Position numbers and translations under genes: made by a program
In this document: piece by piece, positions 11-22,595 of the stretch
Layout: each line of letters opens with the position of its first letter
Numbering within the stretch: the stretch's first letter is position 1
Source: an uncultured Gammaproteobacteria bacterium
Lineage (GTDB): Bacteria > Patescibacteriota > Patescibacteriia > UBA9934 > GWF2-40-263
Assembly (NCBI GenBank): GCA_964399675.1
Contig: CAYNRK010000005.1
Coordinates: forward strand, 766 to 64,765
DNA length: 64,000 nt
Direction: 5' to 3'
The notes under the pieces: generated by a model
Databases searched by the model: none
Told to the model about the DNA's origin: nothing
What the model saw: only the letters and a program-made list of their open reading frames with translations

Positions 11-694
11 AAGAGCGGTGCATTATGTATGGAAGACATATTATTTAATCAGATTGTTTCATTAGAGAATTTGTTCGGTGCCTGGCGCGAGTTCCGTTTA
101 GGGAAACGATCCAGGTAAGATGTTCAAGAGTTTGAACGGCATCTTGAGGATAGGATTTTTGAGCTTCACAACGACTTGATCAACAATCGTTACCATCACG
201 ACCCGTACCACCGTTTTCACATCTTTGATCCAAAACACAGAATTATTCATAAAGCCAGTGTTCGGGATCGTTTGGTTCATCATGCAATTTATCGAATTCT
301 TTATCCTCTTTTTGATCGATCGTTTATTTTTGACAGTTACAGTTGTCGAATTGGGAAAGGAACTCACGCAGCTGTGAATCGTCTTGAGGTTTTTGTTCGT
401 AAAGTTAGTAAGAACCATACAGGCTCATGTTGGGCTTTGAAGTTTGATATTAAGAAGTTTTTTGATTCAGTGGATCATGGGGTGTTGATGGGAATTCTCA
501 CTCATGTCATTTCGAGCTTGCCGAGAGATCTCTCCGTTCGGCCTTTAGCCTCAGTCGAGATGACACAAATAAAAAAGACCATTGATCTTTTGGAGGAGAT
601 CGTTGGCTCCTATTCAACTCAAAAATCCTTAGGGGGGGGTTGTCTTCTGAAAGAGATTTTGAAAACCGTCCACCTCAATAAGCTCCTCTTCTAA
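11..694 (+). pseudogene. Decayed DGR-type reverse transcriptase (RT remnant)
   Basis: Frame-2 translation (..IVSLENLFGAWREFRLGKRSR*DVQEFERHLEDRIFELHNDLINNRYHHDPYHRFHIFDPKHRIIHKASVRDRLVHHAIY..) parallels the N-terminal half of the intact RT at 22965..24068 (ISFENLYLAWEDFRKGK.., KASVRDRVVHQAI, GKGVHPAVNRL, KCDISKYFDSIRH). It has an in-frame TAA at 116-118, a 59-nt palindromic insertion at 506-564 that is not a multiple of 3, a G8 run at 634-641, and is truncated before RT motifs 4/5. Its 3' end overlaps the wbaP stop. Confidence 0.6.
506..564. repeat. Palindromic MITE-like insertion inside the RT pseudogene (gtcatttcgag ... gtcgagatgac)
   Basis: Outer inverted repeat gtcatttcgag / gtcgagatgac with an inner near-palindrome cgagagatctctccg. 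It interrupts RT homology between ..VLMGIL and IKKTIDLLEEI. Termini resemble the gtcattgcgag...ctcgcaatgac element at 5216..5332. Confidence 0.4.
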
Positions 695-2096
695 AAACTA
701 CCACTAGTGGCGTTTTAAGCAAAATGATGAGGTCTAGCCAAGGGCCCCAGTTTTCAATGTAATAAGTATCTAAGCGCACTTCATCATCAAAATCCAAATC
801 AGCTCTACCACTGATTTGTGCCATGCCTGTGATACCGGGTTTAATAGTATGAACTTTTTTGTGTTCGGGTTTGTAGGTTTTTACTTCTTCCGGGTAGTGG
901 GGCCGAGGTCCAACAAGTGACATTCTGCCCATAAGTACGATATAGAATTCAGGGAGTTCGTCCAGGCTAAATTTTCTAATCAACTTTCCAACTTTAGTTA
1001 CACGAGGGTCGTCTTTGAGTTTAAAAAGTGGTGAACCCTCTCGTTCGTTTCCATGTTTTTTTATAAACTCGGGATCAAAACGAAGTTTGTGGGCATCTCT
1101 GATCATTGAGCGAAACTTAAAATAATGAAACGGTTTTCCATTCTGGCCAATGCGCGTGATTTTTTTACCTTTTGGATCTTTTGAAAAAAGAACACCTCCA
1201 GGTTGTTCTAAAAAGAGTGCAATGGCAACGACCAGTTGGATTGGTGAAGTTAAGATGATAAGAACAAGCGCGCCCAAAATATCAAAGAGTCGTTTGTAAA
1301 TAGCCCCCCAGCCATCAAGCGGAGTTTTGCGTACTTCAATTACAGGTATACCTGCGTAAGTATGATTGATTGAACGTCCGGCTGCTGCTGCAAAAAGATC
1401 TGCTGAATAAAGGAACCCCAAGTGCTCAGTGTTTGTAAGTTGAATGATTTCAAGAGTTGTTTGTCGTGAAACTTCCGGATCGGCAAGTACAACTTCATCA
1501 ATTTTGTCGCTGCGTTTCATGCGGCGGATTCGATCAGCAACACTTTTATTGAATTCATTAAATTCTGAGATAACTTTAAATCCAAGCCGTTTTTTATTTT
1601 GGAATTCTTCTTTTAATGCCGAGCTGGTTGAATTATTGCCAATGATTACGATTCTGTGCACGCCGATTCCAGTTTTAAGAAGTGATCGTTGCAAGGCCCT
1701 AATAACAAGTCGTGCAACACAGACAAACAAAATTGAAAGACCCCATGCGGCAATTGCAATGAATCGGGATTCAAAAAGCGTGCGCGAGAAAAAGGTGATT
1801 GCAAAAACAAGTGCCATGGAAGATGAGCAGGCAAGTCCAATGCGCGTAAGCTCTGAAGCAATTGATTTCCTGCTTACTGTGTAAAGTCCGGAAACAGCAA
1901 ATACTAAAATCCAAATGAAAATGATTGGTGCAACTACTTTGAGATAACCTGAAAGTTGAAGATCAAAGATAACTGGTCGCATTGTTGTGAAGTATGGATG
2001 AAAGCGAGCATAAAAAGCCGCAACAGCAGCGGCAAAGAGTGCAAGTAAGTCAATTGGAACAAGTGCAAGTGTAAAGGCAAGTTCTGAACGTTTCAT
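675..2096 (-). CDS. Polyprenyl-phosphate hexose-1-phosphate transferase (WbaP/EpsB-type initiating sugar transferase)
   Basis: Multi-TM N-terminus, central Rossmann-like region, and a C-terminal bacterial sugar transferase domain (..LFSKDPKGKKITRIGQNGKPFHYFKFRSM.., DELPEFYIVLMGRMSLVGPRP, KPGITGMAQISGR). Confidence 0.85.
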   Translation of the reverse strand: MKRSELAFTLALVPIDLLALFAAAVAAFYARFHPYFTTMRPVIFDLQLSGYLKVVAPIIFIWILVFAVSGLYTVSRKSIASELTRIGLACSSSMALVFAITFFSRTLFESRFIAIAAWGLSILFVCVARLVIRALQRSLLKTGIGVHRIVIIGNNSTSSALKEEFQNKKRLGFKVISEFNEFNKSVADRIRRMKRSDKIDEVVLADPEVSRQTTLEIIQLTNTEHLGFLYSADLFAAAAGRSINHTYAGIPVIEVRKTPLDGWGAIYKRLFDILGALVLIILTSPIQLVVAIALFLEQPGGVLFSKDPKGKKITRIGQNGKPFHYFKFRSMIRDAHKLRFDPEFIKKHGNEREGSPLFKLKDDPRVTKVGKLIRKFSLDELPEFYIVLMGRMSLVGPRPHYPEEVKTYKPEHKKVHTIKPGITGMAQISGRADLDFDDEVRLDTYYIENWGPWLDLIILLKTPLVVVFRRGAY

Positions 2097-2149
2097 ACGA
2101 AATCTATATTAACAAAACATTTGTGTTTTTGCGAGGTATTAATAGATTC

Positions 2150-2262
2150 CCCTCCTTTTCAAGGAGGGGTTTCCGCCAAAGGCGGATCAGCCTCTGGCTG
2201 AAGGGGTGGTTATGATTCAGAGTTCTAACCCCCTGTAGTCCCCCTTGAAAAGGGGGACATTC
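2150..2262. other. Array of four short GC-rich hairpins
   Basis: Four hairpins: cccctcc-ttttcaa-ggagggg; ccgcc-aaa-ggcgg; cagcc-tct-ggctg; ccccc-ttgaaaa-ggggg. They lie between the terminator of 2331..3464 and the start of wbaP. Function unknown (structured leader or ncRNA?). Confidence 0.3.
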
Positions 2263-2267
2263 ATCGA

Positions 2268-2312
2268 AATAGAAACACCCCCGTGGCCAGCTGGCTGCGG
2301 GGGTGCGAGTGA
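2268..2312 (-). terminator. Rho-independent terminator of paralog gene 1
   Basis: cccccgtggccagctggctgcggggg stem-loop, followed on the minus strand by a T-rich tract (rc of aatagaaacac). Confidence 0.5.
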
Positions 2313-2330
2313 AGTGGTCGAGGAGTTCGT

Positions 2331-3464
2331 CTACTCGCCGTCTTCCTCCCTGGGAAGCCTGAGGCGCGAGATCATGAGTCGGTACTTGTGCCTGTGACGC
2401 TTGAGCGCCTTCATGTCGTCCTGGACGACATGAGCCCACATGTTGACCAGACCCACGTTTTCGATGTCGTGGGCGAACATGATCAGCCACGCGCGGTAGA
2501 TGCGCATCAGGTCTTCGTCGATCCGGGAAGCGAGTGCGCGGCGGTACATCATGCCGTGCATTTTTTGGCCTGAGGCTTGGATGAAGTCCGCATCTTCGTC
2601 GGCCTTCTCTGCGAAGTCGTCGAAGTTGAACTGTGTTGCCGTGAAGTGATGCTCGAGTCTCTTTGCAAGCTCCTGCTTTTGCGGGTCGGACAGCAGCTTG
2701 ATCGCCGTGCGAACCCATGGTCCGACCTTGAGCAGGACGGAAGGGTTTGCCACGAGTTTCTTGAGGGCTTCGGTGACCAGGTCGAACTCGTATTCTTCCG
2801 CCAGGAAGAACCCGAATGGTGTGAATCCGTCTCCCAACATCTGGTAGTTGGAGTAGTACGCGAACTGCTGGTACGAGGTCTCGAGCTCGGTGGTTGTTTC
2901 CAGGCCCTTCATGAGCAATCCCGCCAGCTCTTTGGGATCGCCCGAGAACTCGATCTTGTGATCCCGTGTTCGCCTTTCTCTTACGTGAACCGAACAGGTT
3001 ACGTAGTCGAGCTTGTCGGCCTCGCGCTTTAGCCAGTTTCCGTACGGTTCCATCGACTTATTGGACACGTCCAGGACGAACTCTGCTGCTGGAAGCAGCA
3101 GCTTCTTCTTGATCTTGGACGGAAGCTTGGGCAAGCTTGTTCCGAACGCGAATGCGCCTCTGACGGCTGCTTCCTTGGTTGCGATCAGCTCTGCCTTGCC
3201 CGCTTTGTCAGCGTCGACCTCTGCCTTGACCTTTGCGAACTCACTCGGGTTGAGCTTCTCGGCTTCCTCGAGCGTGCAGTCGACTCCCTTCTTGAGCTCG
3301 TTGGCGGGTCGTCCGAGTTCTGGCTCGGCTTCGACCTGAGCTACCGGAGCTGCTGCGGCTTCTTCGTTGTTGCTGAAGATCCACGAGCCAGTGGCCCAGA
3401 GCGCGAACGCTGCGACAGCAAGTAGCCCGACGACGATTGCGATTGCGTAACGGTTACGTAGCAC
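2331..3464 (-). CDS. Exported protein, paralog 1 of a four-member family (unknown function)
   Basis: GTG start preceded by aaggagg. Hydrophobic N-terminal anchor/signal. Conserved blocks shared with 3677..5137, 5411..6466 and 6607..7728: ELAGL, GPWVRTAIKLL, LMYRRALASRIDEDLMRIYRAWL..FAHDIE, W.HVVQDD.K.L. GC-rich. Confidence 0.65.
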   Translation of the reverse strand: MLRNRYAIAIVVGLLAVAAFALWATGSWIFSNNEEAAAAPVAQVEAEPELGRPANELKKGVDCTLEEAEKLNPSEFAKVKAEVDADKAGKAELIATKEAAVRGAFAFGTSLPKLPSKIKKKLLLPAAEFVLDVSNKSMEPYGNWLKREADKLDYVTCSVHVRERRTRDHKIEFSGDPKELAGLLMKGLETTTELETSYQQFAYYSNYQMLGDGFTPFGFFLAEEYEFDLVTEALKKLVANPSVLLKVGPWVRTAIKLLSDPQKQELAKRLEHHFTATQFNFDDFAEKADEDADFIQASGQKMHGMMYRRALASRIDEDLMRIYRAWLIMFAHDIENVGLVNMWAHVVQDDMKALKRHRHKYRLMISRLRLPREEDGE

Positions 3465-3508
3465 AACGCCTCCTTTTGTAGACGTAAGTTGGTAAGGTGC
3501 AGGGAGTG

Positions 3509-3537
3509 AAGATACCAGAAAATAAGGCTTTTGTCAA
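3509..3537 (-). promoter_or_regulatory. Sigma70-type promoter of paralog 1 (TTGACA-17-TATCTT)
   Basis: rc of 3509-3537 reads TTGACAaaagccttattttctggTATCTT. It is followed by the conserved leader ..ccttaccaacttacgtctacaaaaggagg and then GTG. Confidence 0.55.
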
Positions 3538-3546
3538 TAGTTAAAA

Positions 3547-3575
3547 ACAAAAAATTCCCAAAAATTGGGAATTTT
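3547..3575. promoter_or_regulatory. Perfect dyad aaaaattccc-aaaaatt-gggaattttt upstream of the paralog-1 promoter (candidate operator)
   Basis: 11-bp arms in perfect inverted repeat, centred about 30 bp upstream of the -35. A similar dyad cccccaaaattttgggag occurs at 8698..8730. Confidence 0.35.
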
Positions 3576-3584
3576 TTAATAGAA

Positions 3585-3652
3585 ACACCCGCCGTCGCTC
3601 TTGTAGAGCTATGGCGGGCGAGGCCCCCGTAGCCAGCTGGCCGCGGGGGTGT
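3585..3652 (-). terminator. Terminator region of paralog 2 (two GC hairpins)
   Basis: acccgccgtcgctc..gagctatggcgggcg and cccccgtagccagctggccgcggggg. T-rich on the minus strand after the first (rc of aatagaaac). Confidence 0.45.
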
Positions 3653-3676
3653 ACGTCGTTGAGCTCGACGAGTCGT

Positions 3677-5137
3677 CTACTCGCGAGGGGTGATCGAGGG
3701 AACGCAGTGGCCCTGGATGCTCAGCATCTCGAGCTTGACCTCCGGAACTGTGTTCATGAGTTTTTGGATCTCCGCGGCAAAGCCGGTTGGGAGATCGTGG
3801 AGCGTACAGCGTTTGGCCTTGACCACGACGCCTTGCTTCTGATCACCTTCGGCCTTGGCTCGGGCATCTTCCAGCTCTCCGGCTCGCTTGACCCCCTCCA
3901 GGTACGCTCGGTGGTCGGCATCGGCGTGCTCGGAAGCGCTGAGCTGTCCGTCACCGTCCTTGTCGCCCTTGAGCGGGGTATCGTGGTTCGCCCCCTTGAT
4001 CGGGAGGTCGTCGGCTTCCGGGGCTTTGTCGTGATCCGTGGCTGCCACGACTTCGCCGAGCAGCTCCTCGTAGAACTTCTTGTCCGCCCCGAGCTTTGCG
4101 AGATCATCCTGGGCGTCGTGGATCCAGAGCGCTGCCTCGTCTCCCTCGATGTCGTGTGCGAACACGGCCAGCCAGATCCGGTAGATCCGGATCATGTCTG
4201 CGTCAGCCTTGGACGCGATTGCCCGACGATAGAGCATGCTCTGCATGGGGTTGTCCTTCGCAAAGGATTCTGTGTCGTCCTCGTCCTCTTCGTCGTACTT
4301 GATCTCCTCGTCGAACGTCTCCCAGTCGAACCCGCTTGCTTGCCAGAGCTCGGTGAGTCTCCGGTTGAGCGCATTCCTCTGGGACTCGTTGAGGGTTCGA
4401 ATGGCGGTTCTGATCCAGGGGCCGCTCAAGCGCAGGGCGGTTCTGTTGGCCACGAGTTTTTTGAGGAGCTCCACGATTGGGTCGTACAACGAACCCTCTT
4501 CGCGATCGAACTTGCCGTACGGGATGAACTTGCCCTCGTGGTAGTACCTGTACTGCACGTCCACATCCGGGTTGGCGTGATCGGTTTTCGGGTTGTCCAG
4601 TCCAGACGCGATCAGGCCGGCCAGATCCTGAGGCCTACCTGAGAAGGTTACGGTCTGGGTGACCGCGTCCTTCCTCCAGCTGCTCTCCTTGACCTTGCAT
4701 GTCCAGTAGGTCCGTCCGTCTGCAGGACGGGTTACCAGCACCTGCGATCCCTCCAGCACATTCGTGCTTCTGCTGAGCACCAGGGGAACCGGCGGGAACC
4801 GGTTGTTCTTCAGGATCGGAAGGTCTTTGGGCGCACGCTTCACCTTGCCTCTCAGCAACTTGAAGCTGTCCTTGACGTCTGTTGCGAGCTCTGAGAGCTC
4901 GTCCTGTGCAGCCTGGGCTTTGCTGCGGATCTCTTGCTCTGTAGTCCGCGTTTCCTCGGGGTTGAGCCGCCGTGCAATCTCAGGGGTGCACTCAGTACTG
5001 GTGTCGAACTTGTTGTCCGGATCCGGGAGTGCCTTGGGGGTCTTGACTACCTTGGCTGCGGGTTCTGGCTTGCGATCTGCGCCGCAGGCGCAGAGCATGG
5101 CCGCAGTGGCCACTGCGAGAATGTAGGTGCGTAGCAC
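3677..5137 (-). CDS. Exported lipoprotein-like protein, paralog 2 (unknown function)
   Basis: Start trimmed to the GTG at 5137-5135 (GTG CTA CGC ACC TAC = M L R T Y), analogous to paralog 1 MLRNRY, paralog 4 MLRARV and paralog 3 MRHTY; it is preceded by aaaggag. The ORF-track start at 5194 is a TTG inside the promoter. N-terminus ..AVATAAMLCACGADRK is lipobox-like. Carries the conserved family blocks plus a long acidic C-terminal extension. Confidence 0.6.
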   Translation of the reverse strand: MLRTYILAVATAAMLCACGADRKPEPAAKVVKTPKALPDPDNKFDTSTECTPEIARRLNPEETRTTEQEIRSKAQAAQDELSELATDVKDSFKLLRGKVKRAPKDLPILKNNRFPPVPLVLSRSTNVLEGSQVLVTRPADGRTYWTCKVKESSWRKDAVTQTVTFSGRPQDLAGLIASGLDNPKTDHANPDVDVQYRYYHEGKFIPYGKFDREEGSLYDPIVELLKKLVANRTALRLSGPWIRTAIRTLNESQRNALNRRLTELWQASGFDWETFDEEIKYDEEDEDDTESFAKDNPMQSMLYRRAIASKADADMIRIYRIWLAVFAHDIEGDEAALWIHDAQDDLAKLGADKKFYEELLGEVVAATDHDKAPEADDLPIKGANHDTPLKGDKDGDGQLSASEHADADHRAYLEGVKRAGELEDARAKAEGDQKQGVVVKAKRCTLHDLPTGFAAEIQKLMNTVPEVKLEMLSIQGHCVPSITPRE

Positions 5138-5183
5138 TAGACGTCTCCTTTGTAGACGTAAGTTGGTAAGGTGCGGAGAATGA

Positions 5184-5212
5184 AGATACCACAAAATAGG
5201 CTTTTTGTCAAT
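5184..5212 (-). promoter_or_regulatory. Sigma70-type promoter of paralog 2 (TTGACA-17-TATCTT)
   Basis: rc reads TTGACAaaaagcctattttgtggTATCTT, followed by the conserved leader. Confidence 0.5.
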
Positions 5213-5215
5213 ATT

Positions 5216-5332
5216 CTTGCGTCATTGCGAGGAGGCCATCCGACGGCCGACGAAGCAACCCCGTTTTCGAGTTCGTAAACGAGATTGCTTCGCTTAATAA
5301 GCTATTCTCGCTCGCAATGACGCGAGTTGCAG
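5216..5332. repeat. Nested palindromic MITE/REP-like element (gcgtcattgcgaggagg ... ctcgcaatgacgc)
   Basis: Outer IR cgtcattgcgag / ctcgcaatgacg with an inner IR gaagcaa / ttgcttc. It is an extra ~117 bp here compared with the other three inter-paralog spacers. A partial inverted copy lies at 13585..13640. Confidence 0.45.
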
Positions 5333-5344
5333 TTTTCCAAATAG

Positions 5345-5385
5345 AAACACCCGCCGTCGCTCTTGTTGAGCTATGGCAGGTGAAG
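5345..5385 (-). terminator. Terminator of paralog 3
   Basis: acccgccgtcgctcttgttgagctatggcaggtg hairpin, preceded on plus by aaatagaaac (a T-run on the minus transcript). Confidence 0.45.
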
Positions 5386-5410
5386 TGGCTGGTTAGGCCG
5401 AGAGGGGTGT

Positions 5411-6466
5411 CTACTTGAGGCCTTGGACGAGCCGCTTGTAGAACGACTTGTCTTTCCGGAGCTTCCTGACGTCCTCTTGGACTTCGTGGATCCAGAGTCC
5501 GGCCTGGTCTGCCTCAATGTCTTGCGCAAGCGCTGCCAGCCAGATCCGGTAGATCCGGATCATGTCCTCGCCGATCTTGGAGGCCTTGGCGCGTTGGTAG
5601 AGCATTAGGCACATGGGATCCATTCTGCCGAAGTTGGCTTTTTTCACCCCCGAGTACTTGAGTCGGGTTGCATGCCAGAGCTCGAGAAGCCGTCGGTTGA
5701 GTCCGGTTCGTTGATCTTTGGTCAAGCCTTGCGCGATCTTGCGAACCCAGGGCCCGGCCTTCTTCACCGCCTTTGGGTTGGCGACGAGCTTTCGCAGCAG
5801 CATGACGATCGGGTCCTTGCCGTCGCTTCCTCTGAGGAACTTGCCGTACGGGATGAAATTCCCATTTGCGTAGAAGTGGTGTTGGCCAAAGCTGCCATCG
5901 TCTTTGTGGTTGCCAGGATGATGTGCCAGGCCCTTGACGATCATGCCGGCAAGCGTTCTGGGCAATCCATCGAATGGCACGTTGCGTGTGATCTCGCCTG
6001 ACTTGTCGAATTCTGGCACGACCTCGCAGGTGATATAGGTATAGTTGTCTGCCTTACGGGTCTTGGCAGGACAGTTGGGAGCGAGTCCTTTTTTGAAACG
6101 GACAGTGACGTTCACTGGAACCTGAGGGAACCTGCCTTTTCTGAGCAAGGGCAGATTCCTGGGAGCGTTTTTGATCCGCTCGTTGAGGTGGATCATCCCG
6201 TGATGTACGTCACTCTCGATGGCCTGGAAGTCTGTACGTGCCTTTTTTTCATGCTCGCGCAGTTGAGCTTCTGCACGATTGACCGAGTTTGGATGGAGCC
6301 TTGACCCCACCTCTACGGTGCATTGGTTGCACTCGCAATAGTCTGGAGCCGAGCCCAACAGTTTCGGTTCTTTCCCGGACGACTCGTCCGATGATGACTC
6401 ATCCGATCCGCTGCAAGCGCACAGCATGGCCGAAACGACCATTGCGAGAATGTAGGTATGACGCAT
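5411..6466 (-). CDS. Exported lipoprotein-like protein, paralog 3 (unknown function)
   Basis: ATG start. MRHTYILAMVVSAMLCACSGSDESSSDESSGKEP has a signal + Cys + Ser-rich linker. Conserved blocks: GPWVRKIAQGL, LMLYQRAKASKIGEDMIRIYRIWL, LWIHEVQEDVRKL. Confidence 0.65.
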   Translation of the reverse strand: MRHTYILAMVVSAMLCACSGSDESSSDESSGKEPKLLGSAPDYCECNQCTVEVGSRLHPNSVNRAEAQLREHEKKARTDFQAIESDVHHGMIHLNERIKNAPRNLPLLRKGRFPQVPVNVTVRFKKGLAPNCPAKTRKADNYTYITCEVVPEFDKSGEITRNVPFDGLPRTLAGMIVKGLAHHPGNHKDDGSFGQHHFYANGNFIPYGKFLRGSDGKDPIVMLLRKLVANPKAVKKAGPWVRKIAQGLTKDQRTGLNRRLLELWHATRLKYSGVKKANFGRMDPMCLMLYQRAKASKIGEDMIRIYRIWLAALAQDIEADQAGLWIHEVQEDVRKLRKDKSFYKRLVQGLK

Positions 6467-6513
6467 TGGCCGTCTCCTTGTGGTAGACGTAGGTTGATAA
6501 GGTACGGAGAGTT

Positions 6514-6542
6514 AAGATACTACAAAATCAGCTTTTTGTCAA
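6514..6542 (-). promoter_or_regulatory. Sigma70-type promoter of paralog 3 (TTGACA-17-TATCTT)
   Basis: rc reads TTGACAaaaagctgattttgtagTATCTT plus the conserved leader. Confidence 0.5.
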
Positions 6543-6549
6543 TAATAGA

Positions 6550-6585
6550 AACACCCCCGCGGTCAGCTGGTTGCGGGGGTATGTG
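6550..6585 (-). terminator. Terminator of paralog 4
   Basis: cccccgcggtcagctggttgcggggg hairpin; minus transcript continues tgtttctattatt. Confidence 0.5.
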
Positions 6586-6606
6586 TGTTGAGCCAAGAAG
6601 TCCTGT

Positions 6607-7728
6607 CTATTCCTCTTCCACTTTCTTGGGAAGGTTGAGGCGCGAGATGAGCAGCCTATACTTGTGTTTGTCCCTCTCGAGCTTCTTGAGATCCTCGCGG
6701 ACAACGTGCGCCCACTTGGCAACCTGGGCCTCTGCTCCTGCGTCGTGCGCGAACGTGATCAGCCAGGCTCTGTAGATCCTCATGAGATCTTCGCCAATGC
6801 GGGAAGCGAGCGCGCGACGGTACATGAGGCCGTGCATTTCGTTTCCGTCACTTTGTGTGAAGTCCTTATCGGCGTTGACCTGCTTGGCGAACTCGTCAAA
6901 GTCAAAGACGGTTGCCTTCCACAACTCCTCGAATCGCCCTGACAACACTCGTTTTTGCCCTTCGGGCAAAAGCTTGATCACCTTACGAACCCACGGTCCA
7001 GCATGTAGCAAGAAGAAGGGAGACACTACGAGCTCTTTGAGTTTTTCAGTGATTGGATCATGAATTGACCCATTAGGCTCGAAAGTTACCAAAGGGATGA
7101 ATCCGAATCCTTCTTCTGCGTCATAGTTGGAGTAGTACGTGTATTGTTCGTTGGTGTCTTCGAATCCAAAATCTTCGATTTTGTATAGTACCAGCCCTGC
7201 GAGTTCACGCGGGTTTCCAGAGAATTGCCCCATGTTTTCGTGGGTCATGTATTCGGTGTGATTGGTTATGCAGGTCGTATATGCGAGACCATCGGATTCG
7301 CGTTCCATTTCGAATTCGTAGGTTTCGAGATAGTTTTCTGGAACACTGAGCCAGAAGACGGGTTTTGCAAGCTGCACCTTTTTCTTTAGCTTGAATGGAG
7401 TTTTTGGAAGACTCCTTCCAAGCTCAAAGGCGCTTTTCAACGATGCTTTTACCCCTTCGATTTTTTTGGGATTTGCAGCCTCAGCATCTTCGAACTCTTT
7501 TTTGGATGATGCAGAGTGCTCTGGATCAAGCTTCCCAGCCATCACCTCAGTGCACTCCTCACCTTCCTTGAGTTCATTGCTTGGTCTGGGAAGCGGTTGA
7601 GGTTCAATGTCTGTTTGCGCGACTGGTTTTGGTGCTTCTGCGTTCGGGCTGAAACGCCAGAGCAGAAGAACTGCTGCGGCCAAGATCAAGGCCGCTCCGA
7701 CTACTGCAGCTACTCTTGCACGTAGCAT
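6607..7728 (-). CDS. Exported protein, paralog 4 (unknown function)
   Basis: ATG start. N-terminal hydrophobic anchor. Conserved blocks shared with paralog 1 along the whole length (PSNELKEGEECTE.., RELAGL, GPWVRKVIKLL, LMYRRALASRIGEDLMRIYRAWLITFAHD, WAHVVREDLKKL). Confidence 0.65.
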   Translation of the reverse strand: MLRARVAAVVGAALILAAAVLLLWRFSPNAEAPKPVAQTDIEPQPLPRPSNELKEGEECTEVMAGKLDPEHSASSKKEFEDAEAANPKKIEGVKASLKSAFELGRSLPKTPFKLKKKVQLAKPVFWLSVPENYLETYEFEMERESDGLAYTTCITNHTEYMTHENMGQFSGNPRELAGLVLYKIEDFGFEDTNEQYTYYSNYDAEEGFGFIPLVTFEPNGSIHDPITEKLKELVVSPFFLLHAGPWVRKVIKLLPEGQKRVLSGRFEELWKATVFDFDEFAKQVNADKDFTQSDGNEMHGLMYRRALASRIGEDLMRIYRAWLITFAHDAGAEAQVAKWAHVVREDLKKLERDKHKYRLLISRLNLPKKVEEE

Positions 7729-7768
7729 CGGTACTCTCCTTGATCGTATTGGTAAGGTGCGGAGAGTT

Positions 7769-7797
7769 AAGATATTACAAAATTAGCTTTTTGTCAA
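7769..7797 (-). promoter_or_regulatory. Sigma70-type promoter of paralog 4 (TTGACA-17-TATCTT)
   Basis: rc reads TTGACAaaaagctaattttgtaaTATCTT plus the conserved leader. Confidence 0.5.
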
Positions 7798-7804
7798 TAC
7801 GAAA

Positions 7805-7840
7805 CACCCGAGGAGTTTTTCGGGTGTGAGTCTGGTGTTG
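7805..7840 (-). terminator. Terminator of membrane-protein gene 7861..8670
   Basis: cacccgaggagtttttcgggtg hairpin; minus transcript followed by tttcgtatt. Confidence 0.4.
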
Positions 7841-7860
7841 AGTTGCCCTTTTGGGCGAGC

Positions 7861-8670
7861 CTATGGGTTCGGGCGGAGCCGGATCAGTTCGTTCAGATTC
7901 TGGTCCCAGGTGTGCATCAGCTTGAGCTGCACGATTACGCCACGATGCCCTTCGGAGAATCGCACTTGAAGGGGTGAATCAGCCAGGAGGTGTAGGTCGA
8001 GCGTTTCGAGAAGGTCGATCAGTCGACCACGCATCTTGCGCATGCCTTTGAGCCATTCCGCGTGGTCGTTGAGGTATGACTCAGGGTGAGTCACGTTTTC
8101 TTCGAGCCAGATGACCTCTTTGGCCCAGCGGGCTCTGAGGGTTCGCAGGCCTTTGAACCACGCGCACCTGAAGTCTGGGCTGATGTCGATGAACCTGCGC
8201 ATGAGGTGTCGGTTTTTTTCCGACAACCAGAACGCCAGGTAGTACCCAGCGAACACGGCCGCAAACATCACGAGCAAGATGTGTGCCGGAAAGGCACGTT
8301 CATTCACGAAGCTTGTGAAGCTGATGCCATCGGGCCGTGGACTGCTCAGGATTGCTGCGGTTGTGCCAAAGGCCATGATGAATGTGATGATGCACACCAC
8401 CATGTAGTCTGGCGGTACGTGCGCGATGAGGACAATGACGCCTATCATGTGCAGCAGCGCCAGGACGCGTTGCAGCAAGATGATTCGTTGGGTCCTTTGT
8501 TGTAGCGAACGAGCATGTGCTGGTTGCAGCGAAAGCAGATTGAACAGGTACAGAACACGTGACGTCAGAACATCATCGTTGATCCGCCTGATGTCGAGAG
8601 CGTTAGTAGCGGTGGTTGTCAATTCATTTCCCCTGGAGTGGTTCCTGCCAACGACAAAAGCTATCATCAT
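7861..8670 (-). CDS. Hypothetical integral membrane protein
   Basis: 269-aa ORF in the same orientation and GC-rich block as the paralogs, with several predicted TM helices (VIVLIAHV.., VVCIITFIMAFGTTAAIL, ILLVMFAAVFAGYYLAFWL). No recognisable motifs. Confidence 0.45.
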   Translation of the reverse strand: MMIAFVVGRNHSRGNELTTTATNALDIRRINDDVLTSRVLYLFNLLSLQPAHARSLQQRTQRIILLQRVLALLHMIGVIVLIAHVPPDYMVVCIITFIMAFGTTAAILSSPRPDGISFTSFVNERAFPAHILLVMFAAVFAGYYLAFWLSEKNRHLMRRFIDISPDFRCAWFKGLRTLRARWAKEVIWLEENVTHPESYLNDHAEWLKGMRKMRGRLIDLLETLDLHLLADSPLQVRFSEGHRGVIVQLKLMHTWDQNLNELIRLRPNP

Positions 8671-8697
8671 CCCAGCCTTTTGTCAATTATAGAAAAC

Positions 8698-8730
8698 AAA
8701 AGACCCCCAAAATTTTGGGAGTCTTTTGGT
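8698..8730. promoter_or_regulatory. Dyad cccccaaaattttgggag near the promoter of 7861..8670
   Basis: Near-palindrome aagaccccc-aaaatttt-gggagtctt next to cttttgtcaat (rc attgacaaaag, -35-like). Same CCCAAAA-TTTGGG core as 3547..3575. Confidence 0.3.
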
Positions 8731-9228
8731 GTCTCAGGATATGTCTGTAAGCCGAATTTTGTCTTCCCTTGGTTTTCACCAAGAGGAGGTGGAAATCTAT
8801 CTAGCCTGACCATTGCTGGCCAGATCATGCGAGCTACCAAATTTGCTCTTACACCGGAAAGGGTTTGCCACGTCTCCATGTCACCATGGGACGAAACATG
8901 TAGCAGATGAAATAAATCTCAACCACACCATGTCACTTTTCACGTTTCATTCAGCCGAAGCTGAACTAGTATCGTCTCTGCGGCACTTTCCCTAGGCTTA
9001 AGTTCAGATGCCAAGGAGTGAATAAATCCAACTCCTCGATTTCTGATTTGTATACCCGGTCGCCGTTAGCGACTTTCCTTTTTTTGTAAGGTTGCCCTAT
9101 ACAAAGGTGTTCGGACTTTCCTCGTATCCACAAAGGACACGTATCCACCCGACATTCCTGGGACGCGGAGATAGTACCAAAGATAGGACAAAAAGTCAAG
9201 GTTGTTTACTTTAATTAAGTTAAAACGA

Positions 9229-9315: not shown

Positions 9316-10335
9316 TCAGGCAGCTTCTTCCAGTTGGCTGTAGTCTTGCGTGGCGTTGAAGGCTTCGATCCTTCGGACGATCTCTCCATCACCTTCTCGG
9401 ATGAAGCTTCCGCCTTTGCAAGCCAGGCCCTCGTCGTCCAGACCAACGAAGATAGTGATGCCGCGTCCTTCGCCGTACTGTACTGCCTTGACCACGTTGA
9501 CTAGACGCGGCGGAGTGAACGAACCGTCCTTGAGTGCTGTTTCAAGCGGAGTGCCGCTAGCAGCAAACGTTGGGTTCAGGTGCATGGAGATGACTGCGCC
9601 AGGAATGCGATCCTGAATTCGGCTCAGGTAGTCGATTGCAGCCTGGATGTCAGCGACAGCTTCCTCTTCTGTCATGCCAGGCACTGGCTTGAACATGAAG
9701 TAGCACTTGGTATGGAAACCGTGCTTGGCAAGTCTTGCAACCAGCCTTTCGAACTGGTTGAGCGGAAGTCCTTTGAGAAAGACCCGCTCTCTGATTTGAT
9801 TGTCAAAGGCCTCGAATCCGACTGCGACTTCGAACGTGGTTGGGGTCTGCCCCTCGTCCACTGCCCGCCTGACGAATTCGAGCTCAGCGTCGTCCACGTA
9901 CTCTGCACGCGACTCAAACGAGAGAACCGCCATGTTGGGCAAGTGCTTGTTGCACATTGCAATGAAGTAGACGAGCGCAGCTGAGGAAAAGGTCTTCTGG
10001 TCAAGGACTGAGCCTTGGTTGCTGACGATTACCTTTCTGATCTTTTGGGCTCGAGTCTTGATCTCGTGGTGGTTGAACAGGTATTTGACCTGCTCCATGA
10101 TGTCCTCGAAACCGATGTGGTTTCGTGATGCTGTTGACGGCAGGTTGCAGCTAATGCATCTTTGCCATCTGCACGCTTGGGTGTGGAAGATCACGAACAG
10201 GACCAGGCCCTCGTGCGAGTTCTGGAAGAAGAACCTTACCGGACGAGTTGGGTCATGGTTGTCGTCAAACTCGTGAGTCTTGCCAACTGCCTTGTGGCCG
10301 CGTTCGATCCTTTGGCGTGTAGTTTCGTGTGGCAT
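9316..10335 (-). CDS. Putative radical-SAM-like enzyme (noncanonical CX4CX2C cluster)
   Basis: 339-aa GC-rich ORF. N-terminal HTQACRWQRCISCNL (Cys-x4-Cys-x2-Cys) followed by Gly-rich/TIM-barrel-like segments. Family assignment is uncertain; possibly a TIGR01210/RaSEA-like archaeosine-type radical SAM enzyme. Confidence 0.35.
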   Translation of the reverse strand: MPHETTRQRIERGHKAVGKTHEFDDNHDPTRPVRFFFQNSHEGLVLFVIFHTQACRWQRCISCNLPSTASRNHIGFEDIMEQVKYLFNHHEIKTRAQKIRKVIVSNQGSVLDQKTFSSAALVYFIAMCNKHLPNMAVLSFESRAEYVDDAELEFVRRAVDEGQTPTTFEVAVGFEAFDNQIRERVFLKGLPLNQFERLVARLAKHGFHTKCYFMFKPVPGMTEEEAVADIQAAIDYLSRIQDRIPGAVISMHLNPTFAASGTPLETALKDGSFTPPRLVNVVKAVQYGEGRGITIFVGLDDEGLACKGGSFIREGDGEIVRRIEAFNATQDYSQLEEAA

Positions 10336-13584: not shown

Positions 13585-13640
13585 GATTGCCGCGTCGGCC
13601 CGTCTGACGGGCCTCCTCGCAATGACGCAGTGTGTTTTTA
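13585..13640. repeat. Partial inverted copy of the gcgtcattgcgaggagg element
   Basis: The rc cactgcgtcattgcgaggaggcccgtcagacgggccgacgcggcaatctccg matches the left half of 5216..5332. Confidence 0.35.
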
Positions 13641-15902: not shown

Positions 15903-16643
15903 ATGAACGCCACGCCAGATGTGGTTGAGAATCAAAAAAGAAGTTGGATTGCAACGATCATAACTCTCGTTGTGCTTTTGGGTCTTGGTGCGTTTGCATG
16001 GAAAGTTGTTCGTTATGCTGATCTAATTAGTTCAGGTGAAATAAATACACTTGTTCAAGAACTTGATGGAACATATTCAGCCAGTGTTGTCCTTTCAACT
16101 ACCCCTATCCCAGACGGTGAGTTTGATGTATTAAGCACGGATGATCCTACATTGGGTGTTTCAAATGCGCCTGTTACTATTGTTGAGTTTGCAGATTTTG
16201 GCTGTCCTTATTCTCGTAGGTCAAGTTTGGTGATGAGAGAACTTGCAATGGAATATCCAACTTACATTAATTACACCTATCGTGACTTTCCGCTTGTTGA
16301 GCTTTATCCTTTTGCAAACAAGGCTGCTGAAGCAGGTCAGTGTGCGCATGATCAAGGAAAGTTTTGGGAGTATCATGACAAGTTGTATCAGAACCAAAAC
16401 AGACTTGATGAACAAGCGCTTTTTGATTTTGCATCGTCACTTAATATGAACACTCGTTTATTTAAGTCATGTCTTGAATCAGGAAAATACACAGAGGAGG
16501 TTCAAAAAGATTATGAAGATGGTGTTGAGGCTGGTGTCCGTGGCACACCAACATTTTTTATTAATGGCAATAGAGTTTCTGGGAGCATTCCAAAGGATGT
16601 GTTAGATCAAATCATCCAAAGTATTGTAAAGAATAGTTTATGA
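15903..16643 (+). CDS. DsbA-family thioredoxin-fold protein with a CPYS (CXXS) active-site motif, membrane-anchored
   Basis: N-terminal TM. VTIVEFADFGCPYSRRS sits at the position of the DsbA CPHC motif, but the second Cys is Ser. C-terminal GTPTFFINGNRVSG is a typical DsbA cis-Pro region. Its stop overlaps the start of 16640..18091 (ATGA). Confidence 0.7.
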   Translation: MNATPDVVENQKRSWIATIITLVVLLGLGAFAWKVVRYADLISSGEINTLVQELDGTYSASVVLSTTPIPDGEFDVLSTDDPTLGVSNAPVTIVEFADFGCPYSRRSSLVMRELAMEYPTYINYTYRDFPLVELYPFANKAAEAGQCAHDQGKFWEYHDKLYQNQNRLDEQALFDFASSLNMNTRLFKSCLESGKYTEEVQKDYEDGVEAGVRGTPTFFINGNRVSGSIPKDVLDQIIQSIVKNSL

Positions 16644-18091
16644 CAAGATCGTTTTCAAAAAGTATAAGACTTGCAATGATCGCAATGACGATCATGCTTG
16701 GTTTTTCATTTGCCTCACCAGCAAACGCACAAGCAACTCCTCCAGAGCCTTGCACTTGTTTTTGTAAAACAAAAGAAGATGGTGCAGTAGCAGAAAAAAC
16801 CAAAATGATTCCATCTGTATGTAGTTCTGCTTGCAATGATAAGAAAACAGGGAAAATTGGAGTCGCAGTGTGTGCTTACAGTTTTTCTGAATACCCAAGT
16901 CGCAGATTGAGTTGTTTTACAGAAGATGAATGTATTGGAAAAAATTATAAAGGTCTTTGGGATGCAAAATATAAACCACCAGAATGTCCGAAAAGCATGC
17001 GTTATTGTTATCCAGATCCTGCCAAGGGGAAGAAGACAAAACTTAATGTAGCGATCGGAGATTTGGAAATCACAGCTGACATTGGTGAGTATATGAGCCA
17101 GATGTATCGATTTTTATTAGGTGCAGGAATTGCCATTGCCATTGTTCTTACAATGGTAGGTGGCCTTCAATATGTTTTAGCTGCCGGTTCCGGACAAGTT
17201 ACAAGTGCAAAAAAACGTATTACAAATTCAATTACAGGACTTGTATTGTTGGTGTTTGCTTACACAATTCTCTACACTATTAATCCAAATCTTGTAACAC
17301 TTAAGGTTCCAAGTTTTCCAATTATTAAAACTGTGATATTGGCGGCAGAGAATTCTTGTGAGCAAATGATAAAAGATGGATTTGTTATTGAGCGTGAAGA
17401 CAACGGACAGAAACTTAGAGCATCATTTAAAGGCGTTGTTAAATGTGGGGTCATGGGCAAGGTTATTTCAGATGCAGCAGGTCAACAGGTTTCAGAAGGT
17501 GCGACTTGTCAGTTTGTTGGCTGTCCAAAAGATAAAAAATGTCTTGGTATTGGTAAAAATGCGATTTGTGGAGCCTGCACTGACGTATATCCTGATGCAG
17601 TAGAAAAAACCGGTGTTAAACCAAGTGAGTCGGTCTGTCAAGGATTAAAAAAGGACAATGTTGTCAAAGCGGGTGTAACAACAGAATGGAATTATTGTTG
17701 GCATTCACGAGATTTGGATTTACTTTTTGATAATTTTGATAAAGCCGGATATGCTGTTGGGGCTGGTACGGGCCCCCTTGGTGTTGCACTTGCTGCAAAA
17801 GTTGCAACAAACGATCTTCAATATGGAATTTGTTCTGAATTAAAAATAGATTGTTCGGAAATTACCAATTGTAAAAAATATGAAGACCTTAAAGTTAAGA
17901 CGTATCAATTAACAGAGGATTTGGATGATGTGCGAAGTAGCGACTGGGGTGCTGGAAATGTTAACTTAACCACGATTTGTGAATCTGATCCATGTGGGGT
18001 TGGAAAAGCGAAACCAGGAAAGGCAGCAGATCCGTGTCAGGTTGGTCTAGATGCTGAAGCAAATGATTGCGATCATGCATCAAATTGGTAG
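16640..18091 (+). CDS. Cysteine-rich secreted/membrane protein with a TrbC/VirB2-like double-TM pilin core
   Basis: Signal peptide (..SFASPANAQA), about 34 Cys in the extracellular regions, and a central pilin-like segment GEYMSQMYRFLLGAGIAIAIVLTMVGGLQYVLAAGSGQVTSAKKRITNSITGLVLLVFAYTILYTINPNL. Confidence 0.5.
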   Translation: MTRSFSKSIRLAMIAMTIMLGFSFASPANAQATPPEPCTCFCKTKEDGAVAEKTKMIPSVCSSACNDKKTGKIGVAVCAYSFSEYPSRRLSCFTEDECIGKNYKGLWDAKYKPPECPKSMRYCYPDPAKGKKTKLNVAIGDLEITADIGEYMSQMYRFLLGAGIAIAIVLTMVGGLQYVLAAGSGQVTSAKKRITNSITGLVLLVFAYTILYTINPNLVTLKVPSFPIIKTVILAAENSCEQMIKDGFVIEREDNGQKLRASFKGVVKCGVMGKVISDAAGQQVSEGATCQFVGCPKDKKCLGIGKNAICGACTDVYPDAVEKTGVKPSESVCQGLKKDNVVKAGVTTEWNYCWHSRDLDLLFDNFDKAGYAVGAGTGPLGVALAAKVATNDLQYGICSELKIDCSEITNCKKYEDLKVKTYQLTEDLDDVRSSDWGAGNVNLTTICESDPCGVGKAKPGKAADPCQVGLDAEANDCDHASNW

Positions 18092-21327: not shown

Positions 21328-22107
21328 ATGAGTGACAAAAGAGTCGTCTCTAACAGAGACGAACTGGCGCTTCGGCGTCAGTGGGATGAGGTTCTTCAGC
21401 AGGTTTTGCGTGACTCTGGCATGTTTGCGCAATTGCGCTACTGCGTGCAGCAAGTTGGCGAGGGTCACAACATTGTCGATCCTGCGCAACTTGGCCAGGC
21501 AAAGCAAAAGCACAACCGCGCTCAGGAACGCCAGCAGGCCATGGAGACGTTCTACCGCGATCTCGGGTTCGACGAGCTCGAGATCCCTGTGCCCACAATG
21601 GACGGCAAGCCAATCTCCAACCGCGAGTTCGGTCGAAGAGCAAAGGCCAACCAAGCGCTTTTTTACCGTCCGGCCACTTCGGACGTCTCCTACGAGGCGT
21701 TCATGCAGGCCGTGGGTCAGGACGAGCACTGGACGGTCGCGGACGAGGACGAGCGTGCAAAGATCGCCTGGGAGCCCACTGAGGAAGGCTACTGGTTCTG
21801 GGCTGAGGTCCAGGACAGCTGCCCACGTACGGGCACGTGTTGGAACGACCTCACTGCCGAGCACACCCTTCTCTGCATTGAGGAGTACGTGATCGTTTGG
21901 CATGCCATGCGCGTGCTCGAGGACACGCTCATCGATCGTTCTACGTGGTCTTGGCTGCGAACACGCTACCAGACCGATTCCGGCTCCGGTGCCCTCTACG
22001 TCTTCGAGTACGATGGCGGGGTGGACGTCTACAGGAGCAGGCCTGAGCACTTGTCGATCGACTACGACTACGTTGGCGGTCGTGTCTCGGAAGTGGTCAA
22101 CCTCTGA
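21328..22107 (+). CDS. DGR target (variable) protein with C-terminal variable repeat
   Basis: 259-aa GC-rich ORF. The last ~42 codons (..DSGSGALYVFEYDGGVDVYRSRPEHLSIDYDYVGGRVSEVVNL) are a diversified copy of the TR at 22470..22595. The VR ends 5 nt before the stop, as is usual for DGR targets. A CLec/FGE-like fold is inference. Confidence 0.8.
   Translation: MSDKRVVSNRDELALRRQWDEVLQQVLRDSGMFAQLRYCVQQVGEGHNIVDPAQLGQAKQKHNRAQERQQAMETFYRDLGFDELEIPVPTMDGKPISNREFGRRAKANQALFYRPATSDVSYEAFMQAVGQDEHWTVADEDERAKIAWEPTEEGYWFWAEVQDSCPRTGTCWNDLTAEHTLLCIEEYVIVWHAMRVLEDTLIDRSTWSWLRTRYQTDSGSGALYVFEYDGGVDVYRSRPEHLSIDYDYVGGRVSEVVNL
21977..22102 (+). repeat. DGR variable repeat (VR)
   Basis: 126 nt aligned to the TR with 15 mismatches. 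14 of them are at TR adenines (VR has T, TT, G, G, G, T, G, C, T, TT, G ...); one is at a TR thymine. Confidence 0.85.
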
Positions 22108-22469: not shown

Positions 22470-22595
22470 AATCCGGCTCCGGTGCCCTCAACGTCAACGA
22501 GTACAATGGCAGGGTGAACGTCAACAGGAACAGGCCTGAGAACTTGTCGATCGACTACGACAACGAAGGCGGTCGTGTCTCGGTAGTAGTCAACC
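22470..22595 (+). repeat. DGR template repeat (TR)
   Basis: Non-mutated, A-rich cognate of the VR; in frame it is full of AAC/AAT codons (..ALNVNEYNGRVNVNRNRPENLSIDYDNEGGRVSVVVN). 363 nt downstream of the target stop, upstream of avd/RT. Confidence 0.85.

Follow-up and report, generated by a model that had tools for sequence, protein, structure and literature searches.

The vlp, vsp and vsa loci of Mycoplasma are tandem clusters of surface lipoprotein genes in which each gene has its own promoter, the 5' non-coding and signal-peptide regions are conserved and the mature parts of the proteins are divergent. Switching in these clusters takes one of three forms, namely slippage of a long homopolymer within the promoter spacer, site-specific inversion, or conversion from silent repeats, and the recombining adhesin genes of M. 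pneumoniae and M. genitalium are markedly GC-richer than the genomes that carry them. Phage morons are autonomous promoter-gene-terminator units of deviant base composition that lie within a prophage. In Borrelia burgdorferi, the erp genes with their 'upstream homology box' (UHB; ospE/ospF/elp) encode divergent surface lipoproteins behind a common promoter, operator and leader, and the conserved 5' part recombines with diverse coding sequences (PMC10016077). Here, an array of four tandem genes (g1 to g4) was analysed in a stretch of 64,000 nucleotides (nt) of contig CAYNRK010000005.1, referred to below as the window. The window sequence was taken from ENA scaffold SUTE22-1_SAMN10231904 scaffold_13 (264 kb), and identical sequence was present in other ENA, JGI and Logan assemblies; the sample names point to the anoxic water column of the Cariaco Basin as the habitat. 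Overall, the array was read, with a probability of roughly 55%, as a tandemly expanded, fast-diverging and lineage-restricted family of membrane-tethered surface proteins, organised in autonomous, strongly signalled units whose junctions stay alike through recombination and because they serve as expression signals.

The array works like the Borrelia erp/UHB loci and the Mycoplasma clusters and is a member of neither, and its gene layout, which has these known precedents, is not surprising alone. As in the erp/UHB loci, the 5' module of the array was far better conserved than the coding sequences (CDS) and some copies shared a putative lipoprotein signal peptide. However, erp genes are carried at allelic positions on cp32 prophage plasmids, whereas the array is tandem on the chromosome between the RNase P RNA gene (rnpB) and a sugar transferase gene. 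The erp operators are bound by BpaB, BpuR and EbfC, while the array has a candidate palindrome with no known regulator, and the lipoprotein leader peptide conserved in all erp members contrasts with a lipobox-like signal in only g2 and g3 and a predicted anchor in g1 and g4. The array also differed in having a conserved 3' untranslated region (UTR) and terminator, and its proteins were unrelated to Erp (no PHROG, Pfam or NCBIfam matches), with no phage genes. The likeness to the Mycoplasma clusters lies in the tandem arrangement, the separate promoters, the conserved 5' flanks, the divergent CDS and the GC-richness of the genes. In contrast to those clusters, the promoter spacer of the array was fixed at 17 nt, with A runs of 4-5 nt, T runs of 4 nt and no long homopolymer in the four promoters, and the inverted repeats were the terminator palindromes. 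In addition, no invertase or recombinase was found in the array island, no silent copies were seen, and the mature proteins appeared globular and without tandem repeats, as judged from the structural model of g1 described below. The units resembled phage morons in being self-contained, with a sigma-70 promoter, an intrinsic terminator and a deviant composition, but they lie outside any prophage, are paralogs of one another and occupy a chromosomal site shared with relatives. Integron gene cassettes were rejected as a description of the array, as each gene had its own promoter, the 3' hairpins had U-rich tails and the proteins scanned included no integrase.

The four genes were paralogs with pairwise protein identities of 28-48%, and the motifs ELAGL, GPWVR, MYRRALAS...RIYRAWL, FAHD and W.H were found in them, in agreement with an initial annotation of this DNA that had proposed four related proteins with shared motif blocks. 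The open reading frames (ORFs) were recovered at the positions given in that annotation, with the two ATG starts (g3 and g4) and two GTG starts (g1 and g2) that it had listed; it had missed that all four are on the minus strand. Transcription along the array thus runs in the order g4, g3, g2, g1. A longer g2 ORF starting from a TTG at 5194 was rejected, because this start falls between the -35 and -10 elements of the g2 promoter. The CDS neighbour-joining tree grouped g1 with g4 (bootstrap 1.0) and g2 with g3 (bootstrap 0.995). Relatives are denoted below by locus or contig (L) and protein (P) numbers. A TAG stop was used by 11 of the 12 family genes examined (window, L010, L011, L012, L023, L026, L028, L030 and L031), P0007 being the sole one to end in TGA, and by 8 of the 41 backbone genes of the window.

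All four genes were preceded by TTGACA, a spacer of exactly 17 nt and TATCTT, a 29-nt promoter pattern with four exact matches in the 64 kb and 0 expected. The leader GCACCTTACCAACTTACGTCTAC was exact (23/23) in g1 and g2 and had three mismatches in g3 (20/23); these were its three occurrences against 0 expected, with no further copy on either strand of the window. The g4 leader kept only GCACCTTACCAA, and its ACGTCTAC part was lost or replaced, so that the near-identity of the leaders reported earlier was true for g1, g2 and g3 and only partly for g4. A strong Shine-Dalgarno (SD) sequence, AAGGAG, was found ahead of the array genes, and the promoters of g1 and g2 were called as TG extended -10 promoters by the promoter scan. 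Searches with the leader pattern returned two matches in GTDB genomes, both by chance and in unrelated contexts, and none in JGI metagenomes.

At the other end, every array gene closed with the stop TAG and AC; a short 3' UTR, similar between the copies, came next, then a stable GC hairpin and finally the tail GGGTGTTTCTATT, which occurred exactly four times in the window, once per array gene, against 0.1 expected. A hairpin of type A, CCCCCGC.GCCAGCTGGC..CGGGGG, was found after g1, g2 and g4, and one of type B, CCCGCCATAGCTC.ACAAGAGCGACGGCGGG, after g2 and g3. The terminator hairpins had folding energies of -20.8 to -49.2 kcal/mol and z-scores of -2.3 to -4.7. These energies and the U-rich tails confirmed that each gene has its own GC hairpin terminator and, with a promoter found for each gene as well, the initial view of four independent promoter-leader-CDS-terminator units was sound; the conserved 3' UTR starting at the stop (TAGAC) had been overlooked. 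The tail of the g4 terminator abuts the -35 element of g3 directly (TGTTTCTATTATTGACA), and the tail of a neighbouring 269-aa gene likewise runs into the g4 promoter. Since the tails run into the next -35 element, the repeated unit is the junction of about 170 nt that comprises the 3' UTR, hairpin, tail, promoter and leader.

The upstream modules of the four copies were 68-84% identical, against 44-58% for CDS nucleotides in the codon alignment and 30-50% for fourfold-degenerate sites, where saturation at this base composition is about 30%. The claim that the flanks are far better conserved than synonymous sites was therefore upheld when leaders and synonymous sites were compared. Upstream identity was 0.80 for g1-g2, 0.84 for g2-g3, 0.81 for g3-g4 and 0.68 for g1-g4, the lowest of all pairs. 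Upstream similarity thus tracked adjacency in the array and conflicted with the sister relationship of g1 and g4 in the CDS tree. The longest exact run shared by g1 and g2 was 26 nt in the leader versus at most 11 nt in the CDS, and the type A and type B terminators were spread over the array as a mosaic. In L005 and L006, which came from two different samples, a g3-like 3' end was joined at the stop (TAGAC) to a g2-type 3' flank and was followed by g1. The simplest reading of this structural variant is an array without g2, and its breakpoint sits at a module boundary. Four of the eight assemblies shown (L018-L021) ended inside g3 or g2. From the adjacency pattern, the 26-nt leader run and the structural variant we infer that the flanks were homogenised by recombination, and this, together with selection for strong expression, is favoured over a structured leader RNA. 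Recent promoter conversion, one of the two explanations in the initial annotation, fits the same three observations better than the other, selection on the leader RNA.

The array is bounded by two landmarks that were conserved in relatives, rnpB upstream (also found in L011 and L012) and the gene for a polyprenyl glycosylphosphotransferase downstream; this conserved chromosomal site was missing from the initial annotation. The gene that follows the family genes in L010 and L012 shared 64-67% identity with the window transferase. The order of genes was tryptophanyl-tRNA synthetase (TrpRS), rnpB, P0007 and sugar transferase in L012, and rnpB, P0006, P0005 and sugar transferase in L011 and L010. 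As the three closest relatives are at the same site, this location is ancestral, and the number of copies rose from one to two and then to four. In the tree, a clade of the window copies was set against P0005-P0007 with a bootstrap of 1.0. Identity between window and relatives was 64-67% for the sugar transferase, 72% for TrpRS and 18-27% for the family proteins, and the orthologs P0005 and P0007 were 40% identical while their neighbouring transferases were 80% identical. The family diverges much faster than its neighbour genes.

The N-termini of the four paralogs were hydrophobic; by eye, g2 and g3 carried ...AMLCAC followed by a polar linker, and g1 and g4 an anchor helix of about 20 residues. 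The lipobox of g2 and g3, LCA/C, was judged by eye to be atypical at position -2, and those of the relatives to be clear (LAGC, IFGC, FVGC, LVAC and IAGC). In the signal region, g2 and g3 shared a 71-nt stretch with 79% identity (repeat family D6), and g1 and g4 had a different anchor. Two cysteines, C63 and C157 in g1 numbering, one of them in the CT motif, were invariant in the alignment of seven sequences made up of the window copies and their closest relatives. The hydrophobic N-termini and the cysteine pair fit an extracytoplasmic protein, and the lipobox-like or hydrophobic anchor signals agree with the exported or anchored proteins proposed initially; the paralogs are predicted to lie at the cell surface. 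A C-terminal extension of about 125 aa in g2 contained an EF-hand-like loop, DKDGDGQLSASE, at aa 392-403 (window 3929..3964).

An AlphaFold model of g1 built on an alignment of 14 sequences was confident (pLDDT 85, pTM 0.75) and showed an N-terminal helix, a linker, a long helix (73-109), a four-stranded beta meander (127-173) and a helical C-terminal domain (177-366). The most conserved residues were R308, R309, Y323, R324, W326, W250, W343 and Y361, and the family alignment contained no invariant or near-invariant acidic residue. This pattern of conserved residues suggests binding rather than acid-base catalysis. For the conserved C-terminal Arg/Tyr/Trp-rich helical domain (YRR...IYR.W...W), ligand binding is the probable role, and the ligand may be an anionic glycan of the envelope or of a partner cell.

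The protein family is new and without a detectable relative in sequence or fold. The four proteins had no match in Pfam, NCBIfam, PHROGs or PADLOC, and the 14 family members had no recurrent or significant match in Pfam or NCBIfam. A sequence profile search of the PDB returned no match (best E 0.13), and Foldseek gave none at E ≤ 0.001 (best E 0.42 with TM ≤ 0.20 in the PDB, best E 0.13 in BFVD), so the family, which the initial annotation could not assign, matched no characterised domain in any of these searches. The full HMMER scan of 1.84 billion cluster representatives recovered only 14 family proteins in total, 10 of which were remote relatives, all anonymous. Word-indexed homolog searches with profiles of 4 and 14 sequences returned essentially only the query genes, and neither metagenome nor viral contigs yielded a confirmed relative in protein-guided locus searches. 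The nearest sequences, P0005-P0014, were metagenomic and shared CT.E.A..L.P, GPW, YRRW...IYR.W, a final Y and a lipobox or anchor; none of them had a name or a Pfam domain.

If the preferred reading holds, tandem duplication at a fixed site between rnpB and the priming sugar transferase gene would have expanded the family from one copy to four. Each copy would be an autonomous monocistronic unit for strong expression, with a near-consensus sigma-70 promoter, a short leader, an SD sequence and a GC hairpin, and the array genes may be highly expressed. The junctions would be constrained as expression signals and would exchange sequence among themselves through gene conversion or unequal crossing-over, and the same recombination would gain, lose and re-pair coding sequences, which would diverge to saturation. 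The paralogs would then form part of the cell surface, with variable parts that differ between copies. Several points weigh against this reading. The adjacency gradient comes from modules of about 75 nt in four copies and is suggestive, not statistically strong. A shared operator under purifying selection could hold the modules alike as well, and a recent foreign origin of the array is possible. Part of the promoter identity is generic and reflects the general promoter style of the lineage, as TTGACAAAA and TTTTGTGG-TA (extended -10) were also found at rnpB and at other promoters of the genome and of relatives. The GC-rich codon usage is left unaccounted for by the model, and the persistent GC-richness of the family is itself new. 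Finally, the terms 'surface' and 'strongly expressed' were assigned from sequence signals only, and the taxonomic placement given below was drawn from gene content.

A shared operator, at which one transcription factor would bind all four promoters and co-regulate the genes as at the Borrelia erp operators, is possible but on balance unlikely as the cause of the likeness; it is compatible with the preferred reading, and both may apply. The candidate palindrome ACAAAA-N6-TTTTGT covers the -35 element together with the spacer and was perfect in g2, g3 and g4 and matched at 5/6 positions in g1. It was also found ahead of the ortholog P0007 (ACAAAAGGCTGTTTTTGT) and in imperfect form ahead of P0006 and P0005, and the promoters of g2 and P0007 were about 80% identical by manual count versus about 20% identity of the proteins. 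In addition, a CCTT(T)AC(C)AA box just past the start region was common to the window genes, L010 and L012. However, the arms of the palindrome are A/T tracts that overlap the generic promoter elements named above, which were also seen at rnpB and at unrelated genes and lineages, and no candidate regulator gene adjoins the array. An operator would also leave unexplained why the 3' UTRs and terminators are conserved, as well as the adjacency gradient and the mosaic variant.

The composition of the array raised a further alternative. The GC content at third codon positions (GC3) was 0.56-0.77 in the four array genes versus 0.24-0.38 in backbone genes, in line with the GC-rich block reported in the initial annotation, and the 5' half of g4 was less GC-rich than the rest. 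The GC-rich stretch extended to about 10400 and included rnpB and two unrelated GC-rich genes (7861..8670 and 9316..10335). Codon usage in array and backbone was 0.89 and 0.20 for TTC, 0.85 and 0.23 for ATC, 0.46 and 0.10 for CTC, and 0.69 and 0.24 for AAG; the neighbouring 269-aa and 339-aa genes and the target gene of a diversity-generating retroelement (DGR) in the window shared the codon usage of the array. An assembly chimera as the source of the GC jump was rejected, as the same sequence was independently assembled from at least 6 samples (ENA/SPIRE, JGI, Logan), and AT-rich promoters of native style and rnpB were interleaved with the GC-rich genes. Translational selection is unlikely to underlie the codon bias: the Arg, Ala and Gly codons were spread, Lys and Glu shifted to G-ending codons, and an enzyme and a membrane protein shared the bias.

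GC-richness was a trait of the family in several lineages and not of the array block alone, which had not been noticed initially. GC3 exceeded that of neighbouring genes for P0006 (0.61 versus 0.41), P0007 (0.52 versus 0.37-0.44), P0008 (0.78 versus 0.32-0.36) and P0010 (0.89 versus 0.54), while P0009 (0.71) had mixed neighbours (0.65 and 0.48). P0011 (0.79) and P0013 (0.77) had no other called gene on their contigs, with flanks that were AT-rich by eye in the former and short flanks of about 43-46% GC in the latter. P0005, with 0.42 versus 0.41, was the exception to the GC excess of the family. As the synonymous sites are saturated and all copies are GC-rich, either the array arrived recently after diverging in a GC-rich setting or the bias is maintained in place, through biased gene conversion or selection.

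The first of these possibilities corresponds to foreign, moron-like cassettes. Under it, the four paralogs, the 269-aa and 339-aa genes and the DGR target would come from a GC-richer pool (a host, phage or other mobile DNA of this clade) and would have been inserted beside rnpB as prefabricated units of promoter, gene and terminator, and the similar flanks would be common cassette ends instead of the outcome of homogenisation in place. This explanation is rather unlikely. One codon usage, radically unlike that of the backbone, ran through the GC-rich genes, and 8 of the 11 strict TTGACA-17-TAnnnT promoters of the window were ahead of genes with raised GC3. The neighbouring 339-aa gene, of TIGR01210 type, had, among the organism-named matches, relatives with 53-57% identity in distant phyla, was absent from the site in L012 and ended in a terminator related to type B with a compensatory change in the inner stem. 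The neighbourhoods of stable RNA genes such as rnpB are classic sites of island insertion, and the position beside rnpB would be in keeping with this. However, three related lineages carried the family at this position, and the window copies were monophyletic. The saturated synonymous sites of paralogs that are all GC-rich would require that they diverged elsewhere or that GC was maintained in place; moreover, there were no phage, integrase or defence matches in the island and no relatives in viral contigs, and the promoters were in host style and resembled the rnpB promoter.

The second possibility is that the family itself keeps up its GC-rich, C-ending codon usage, which would then not be a remnant of recent transfer. 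The junctions would serve as portable adaptors for recombination and expression, the coding cassettes would be continually exchanged and converted, both inside a strain and from strain to strain, and the composition would be driven by GC-biased gene conversion or linked selection. This idea is put forward tentatively, as an unlikely but possible reading, and is based on the family GC3 of 0.52-0.89 against 0.3-0.54 in neighbours in most of the lineages examined, which persists in spite of saturated synonymous sites between paralogs.

A regulatory leader RNA, as a structure that sequesters the SD sequence, a thermosensor or ligand sensor, or a common target of a small RNA (sRNA) or protein, is improbable. 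Apart from the leader identity among g1, g2 and g3 (23/23 in g1 and g2, 20/23 in g3), a small hairpin ACGUCU...AGACGU overlapped the SD sequence in g1-g3, with a G-U pair for A-U in the g1 stem (AGACGU to AGGCGU), and CCUU/AAGG complementarity was present in all leaders, those of relatives included. However, the leaders folded no better than shuffled sequences (z +0.62, -0.84, -0.69 and -0.21), g4 lacked the 5' arm of the small hairpin, and the leaders of orthologs varied in sequence and in length (about 35 to about 115 nt). Rfam 15 gave only sub-threshold, chance-level matches, rimP with 25.6 bits (threshold 47) and P15 with 24.5 bits (threshold 70), and no complementary sequence was found elsewhere in the window. 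The promoter and the 3' flank were equally conserved, which an RNA leader does not explain. Selection on leader RNA structure or on an sRNA target, as suggested in the initial annotation, thus found no backing in folding, Rfam or antisense copies, and the leader RNA explanation is weakly refuted here. The paralogs as variable-protein targets of a DGR can be practically discounted: a complete DGR is in the window and an accessory bAvd gene lies just beyond the window start, but the conserved C-terminus is helical, and 2200..7900 contained no match resembling a template repeat (TR) from the window TR or from the DNA near bAvd, the best TR-to-array matches being 11-28 nt with E ≥ 0.2.

The coordinates of the array and of other features are given in Table 1. 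Three structured elements were found beside the basic junctions. The AT-rich hairpin upstream of the g1 promoter was, together with that promoter, 75% identical to the rnpB terminator and the promoter of the 269-aa gene (8674..8726), and this apparent copying is a further point in favour of concerted evolution of the flanks. The nested hairpin had a partial copy at about 13590..13630 on the minus strand, and its arm GCGTCATTGCGAGGAGGCC recurred upstream of the RNase J gene; this insertion, outside the basic junction, looks like a small repeat, a MITE-like element (miniature inverted-repeat transposable element) or an RNA element. The hairpin cluster separates the g1 terminator from the sugar transferase gene; similar CCCCC/GGGGG hairpins were found beside family members in L023 and L028, and in Rfam the cluster had only a sub-threshold match to P15 (E 0.057).

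Table 1. Positions of the array components, structured elements, promoters and neighbouring genes in the window.
Feature	Coordinates	Strand	Description
g1 CDS	2331..3464	minus	377 aa; GTG start; N-terminal membrane anchor; transcribed last; GC3 0.74
g2 CDS	3677..5137	minus	486 aa; GTG start; lipobox-like MLCAC/G; GC3 0.77
g3 CDS	5411..6466	minus	351 aa; ATG start; lipobox-like MLCAC/S, then Ser/Asp-rich linker; GC3 0.69
g4 CDS	6607..7728	minus	373 aa; ATG start; N-terminal membrane anchor; first gene of the array; GC3 0.56
g1 promoter-leader module	3465..3540	minus	-35 TTGACA 3532..3537; -10 TATCTT 3509..3514; leader GCACCTTACCAACTTACGTCTAC; SD AAGGAGG; repeat family D2
g2 promoter-leader module	5138..5214	minus	-35 5206..5211; -10 5183..5188; TG extended -10; leader identical to g1; SD AAGGAG
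g3 promoter-leader module	6467..6545	minus	-35 6537..6542; -10 6514..6519; leader with 3 mismatches to g1/g2
g4 promoter-leader module	7729..7800	minus	-35 7792..7797; -10 7769..7774; leader diverged or truncated past GCACCTTACCAA
g1 3' module	2268..2330	minus	TAG+AC; 3' UTR of ~25 nt; type A hairpin 2275..2303; tail UGUUUCUAUU; -24.8 kcal/mol, z -3.0; D5, I1
g2 3' module	3578..3676	minus	TAGAC; 3' UTR; type A hairpin 3624..3652; type B hairpin ~3586..3616; tail; -49.2 kcal/mol, z -4.7; D4, D5
g3 3' module	5340..5410	minus	TAGAC; 3' UTR; type B hairpin; tail; -24.4 kcal/mol, z -3.9; D4
g4 3' module	6544..6606	minus	TAGAC; 3' UTR; type A hairpin; tail; -20.8 kcal/mol, z -2.3; D5
AT-rich hairpin	3548..3578	minus	just upstream of the g1 promoter; repeat family D8
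Nested-hairpin insertion	5212..5340	minus	129 nt; between g3 terminator and g2 promoter; -59.9 kcal/mol, z -6.9
GC hairpin cluster	2120..2275	minus	4-5 hairpins, e.g. GUCCCCCUUUUCAAGGGGGAC, CCCCUCCUUGAAAAGGAGGGG; -62.1 kcal/mol, z -6.0
Strict promoters ahead of raised-GC3 genes	3537, 5211, 6542, 7797, 8686, 10410, 21186, 36001		
Remaining strict promoters	9199, 13699, 24101		
RNase P RNA (rnpB)	8731..9160	minus	146.5 bits; conserved upstream landmark
Polyprenyl glycosylphosphotransferase (Bac_transf)	675..2096	minus	Pfam E 2.9e-58; conserved downstream landmark
269-aa gene	7861..8670	minus	GC-rich predicted membrane protein; no family match
339-aa gene	9316..10335	minus	GC-rich radical SAM enzyme, TIGR01210 / archaeosine-synthase-beta-like; 721 homologs
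Complete DGR	21328..24068	plus	GC-rich 259-aa target 21328..22107; variable repeat (VR) 21979-22102; TR 22472-22595; reverse transcriptase 22965..24068
IS110-family transposase	39122..40165	plus	GC3 0.49, moderately raised; nearest transposase to the array
tRNA-Ile, anticodon UAU (tat)	57154..57229	plus	unusual bacterial way of reading AUA
T4SS_pilin-domain protein, two Wzy_C (O-antigen-ligase-like) proteins (one with TPR repeats), cohesin-domain protein	16640..18091, 51841..55980, 59531..61444		

The 269-aa and 339-aa genes are additions in this genome, one on each side of rnpB. The annotated ATG of the 269-aa gene overlaps its own promoter (TTGACA 8681..8686), and the true start is probably an ATG near 8626. 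This gene and the array share the TAG stop, a CUCAAC motif in the 3' UTR and the terminator tail GGGTGTTTCG. The 53-57% identity of the 339-aa enzyme was to proteins labelled Verrucomicrobia, Desulfobacteraceae and Spirochaetota among the organism-named matches. The gene was missing between TrpRS and rnpB in L012, so it was probably acquired horizontally.

In the DGR, TR and VR were 89% identical and all differences within the repeat were at TR adenines. The promoters at 21186 and 24101 were almost identical (TTGACAAAACAGGCTTTTTGGT). The bAvd gene (PF22296, a DGR accessory) lies past the sugar transferase gene, just beyond the window start, and was located at 3603..3947 in L003 and 13426..13770 in L002. 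Each contig of the bAvd region, namely the scaffolds of 264 kb and 23 kb and L003 (4.4 kb), stopped about 280 nt beyond the next ORF of 113 aa, and these shared ends suggest that a second DGR is present or that a repeat interrupts the assembly. The genome GC content was about 38%. Taken together, the DGR and the probable second one, the T4SS_pilin, Wzy_C/TPR and cohesin proteins, the tRNA-Ile(UAU) and the GC content of about 38% indicate that the organism is probably a bacterium of the candidate phyla radiation (CPR; Patescibacteria). The pilin, Wzy_C and cohesin proteins make for a gene content weighted towards the cell surface, as is typical of CPR bacteria, and together with the DGRs they would suit an organism that remodels its surface.

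If the preferred reading is true, an uncultured bacterium of anoxic water would owe a major and variable part of its cell surface to the array. The array would also provide a defined, strong and portable set of promoters, leaders and terminators for a lineage without genetic tools, and a small natural system for the co-evolution of flanks and coding sequences, with concerted evolution on one side and cassette gain and loss on the other. In addition, the family would be a test case for how GC-rich codon usage is kept in AT-rich genomes, whether by transfer, biased gene conversion or selection. Should the GC-rich codon usage prove to be maintained within the family, the array would be a compact natural case of compositional divergence driven by recombination and of surface-protein cassette shuffling in a probable CPR episymbiont.

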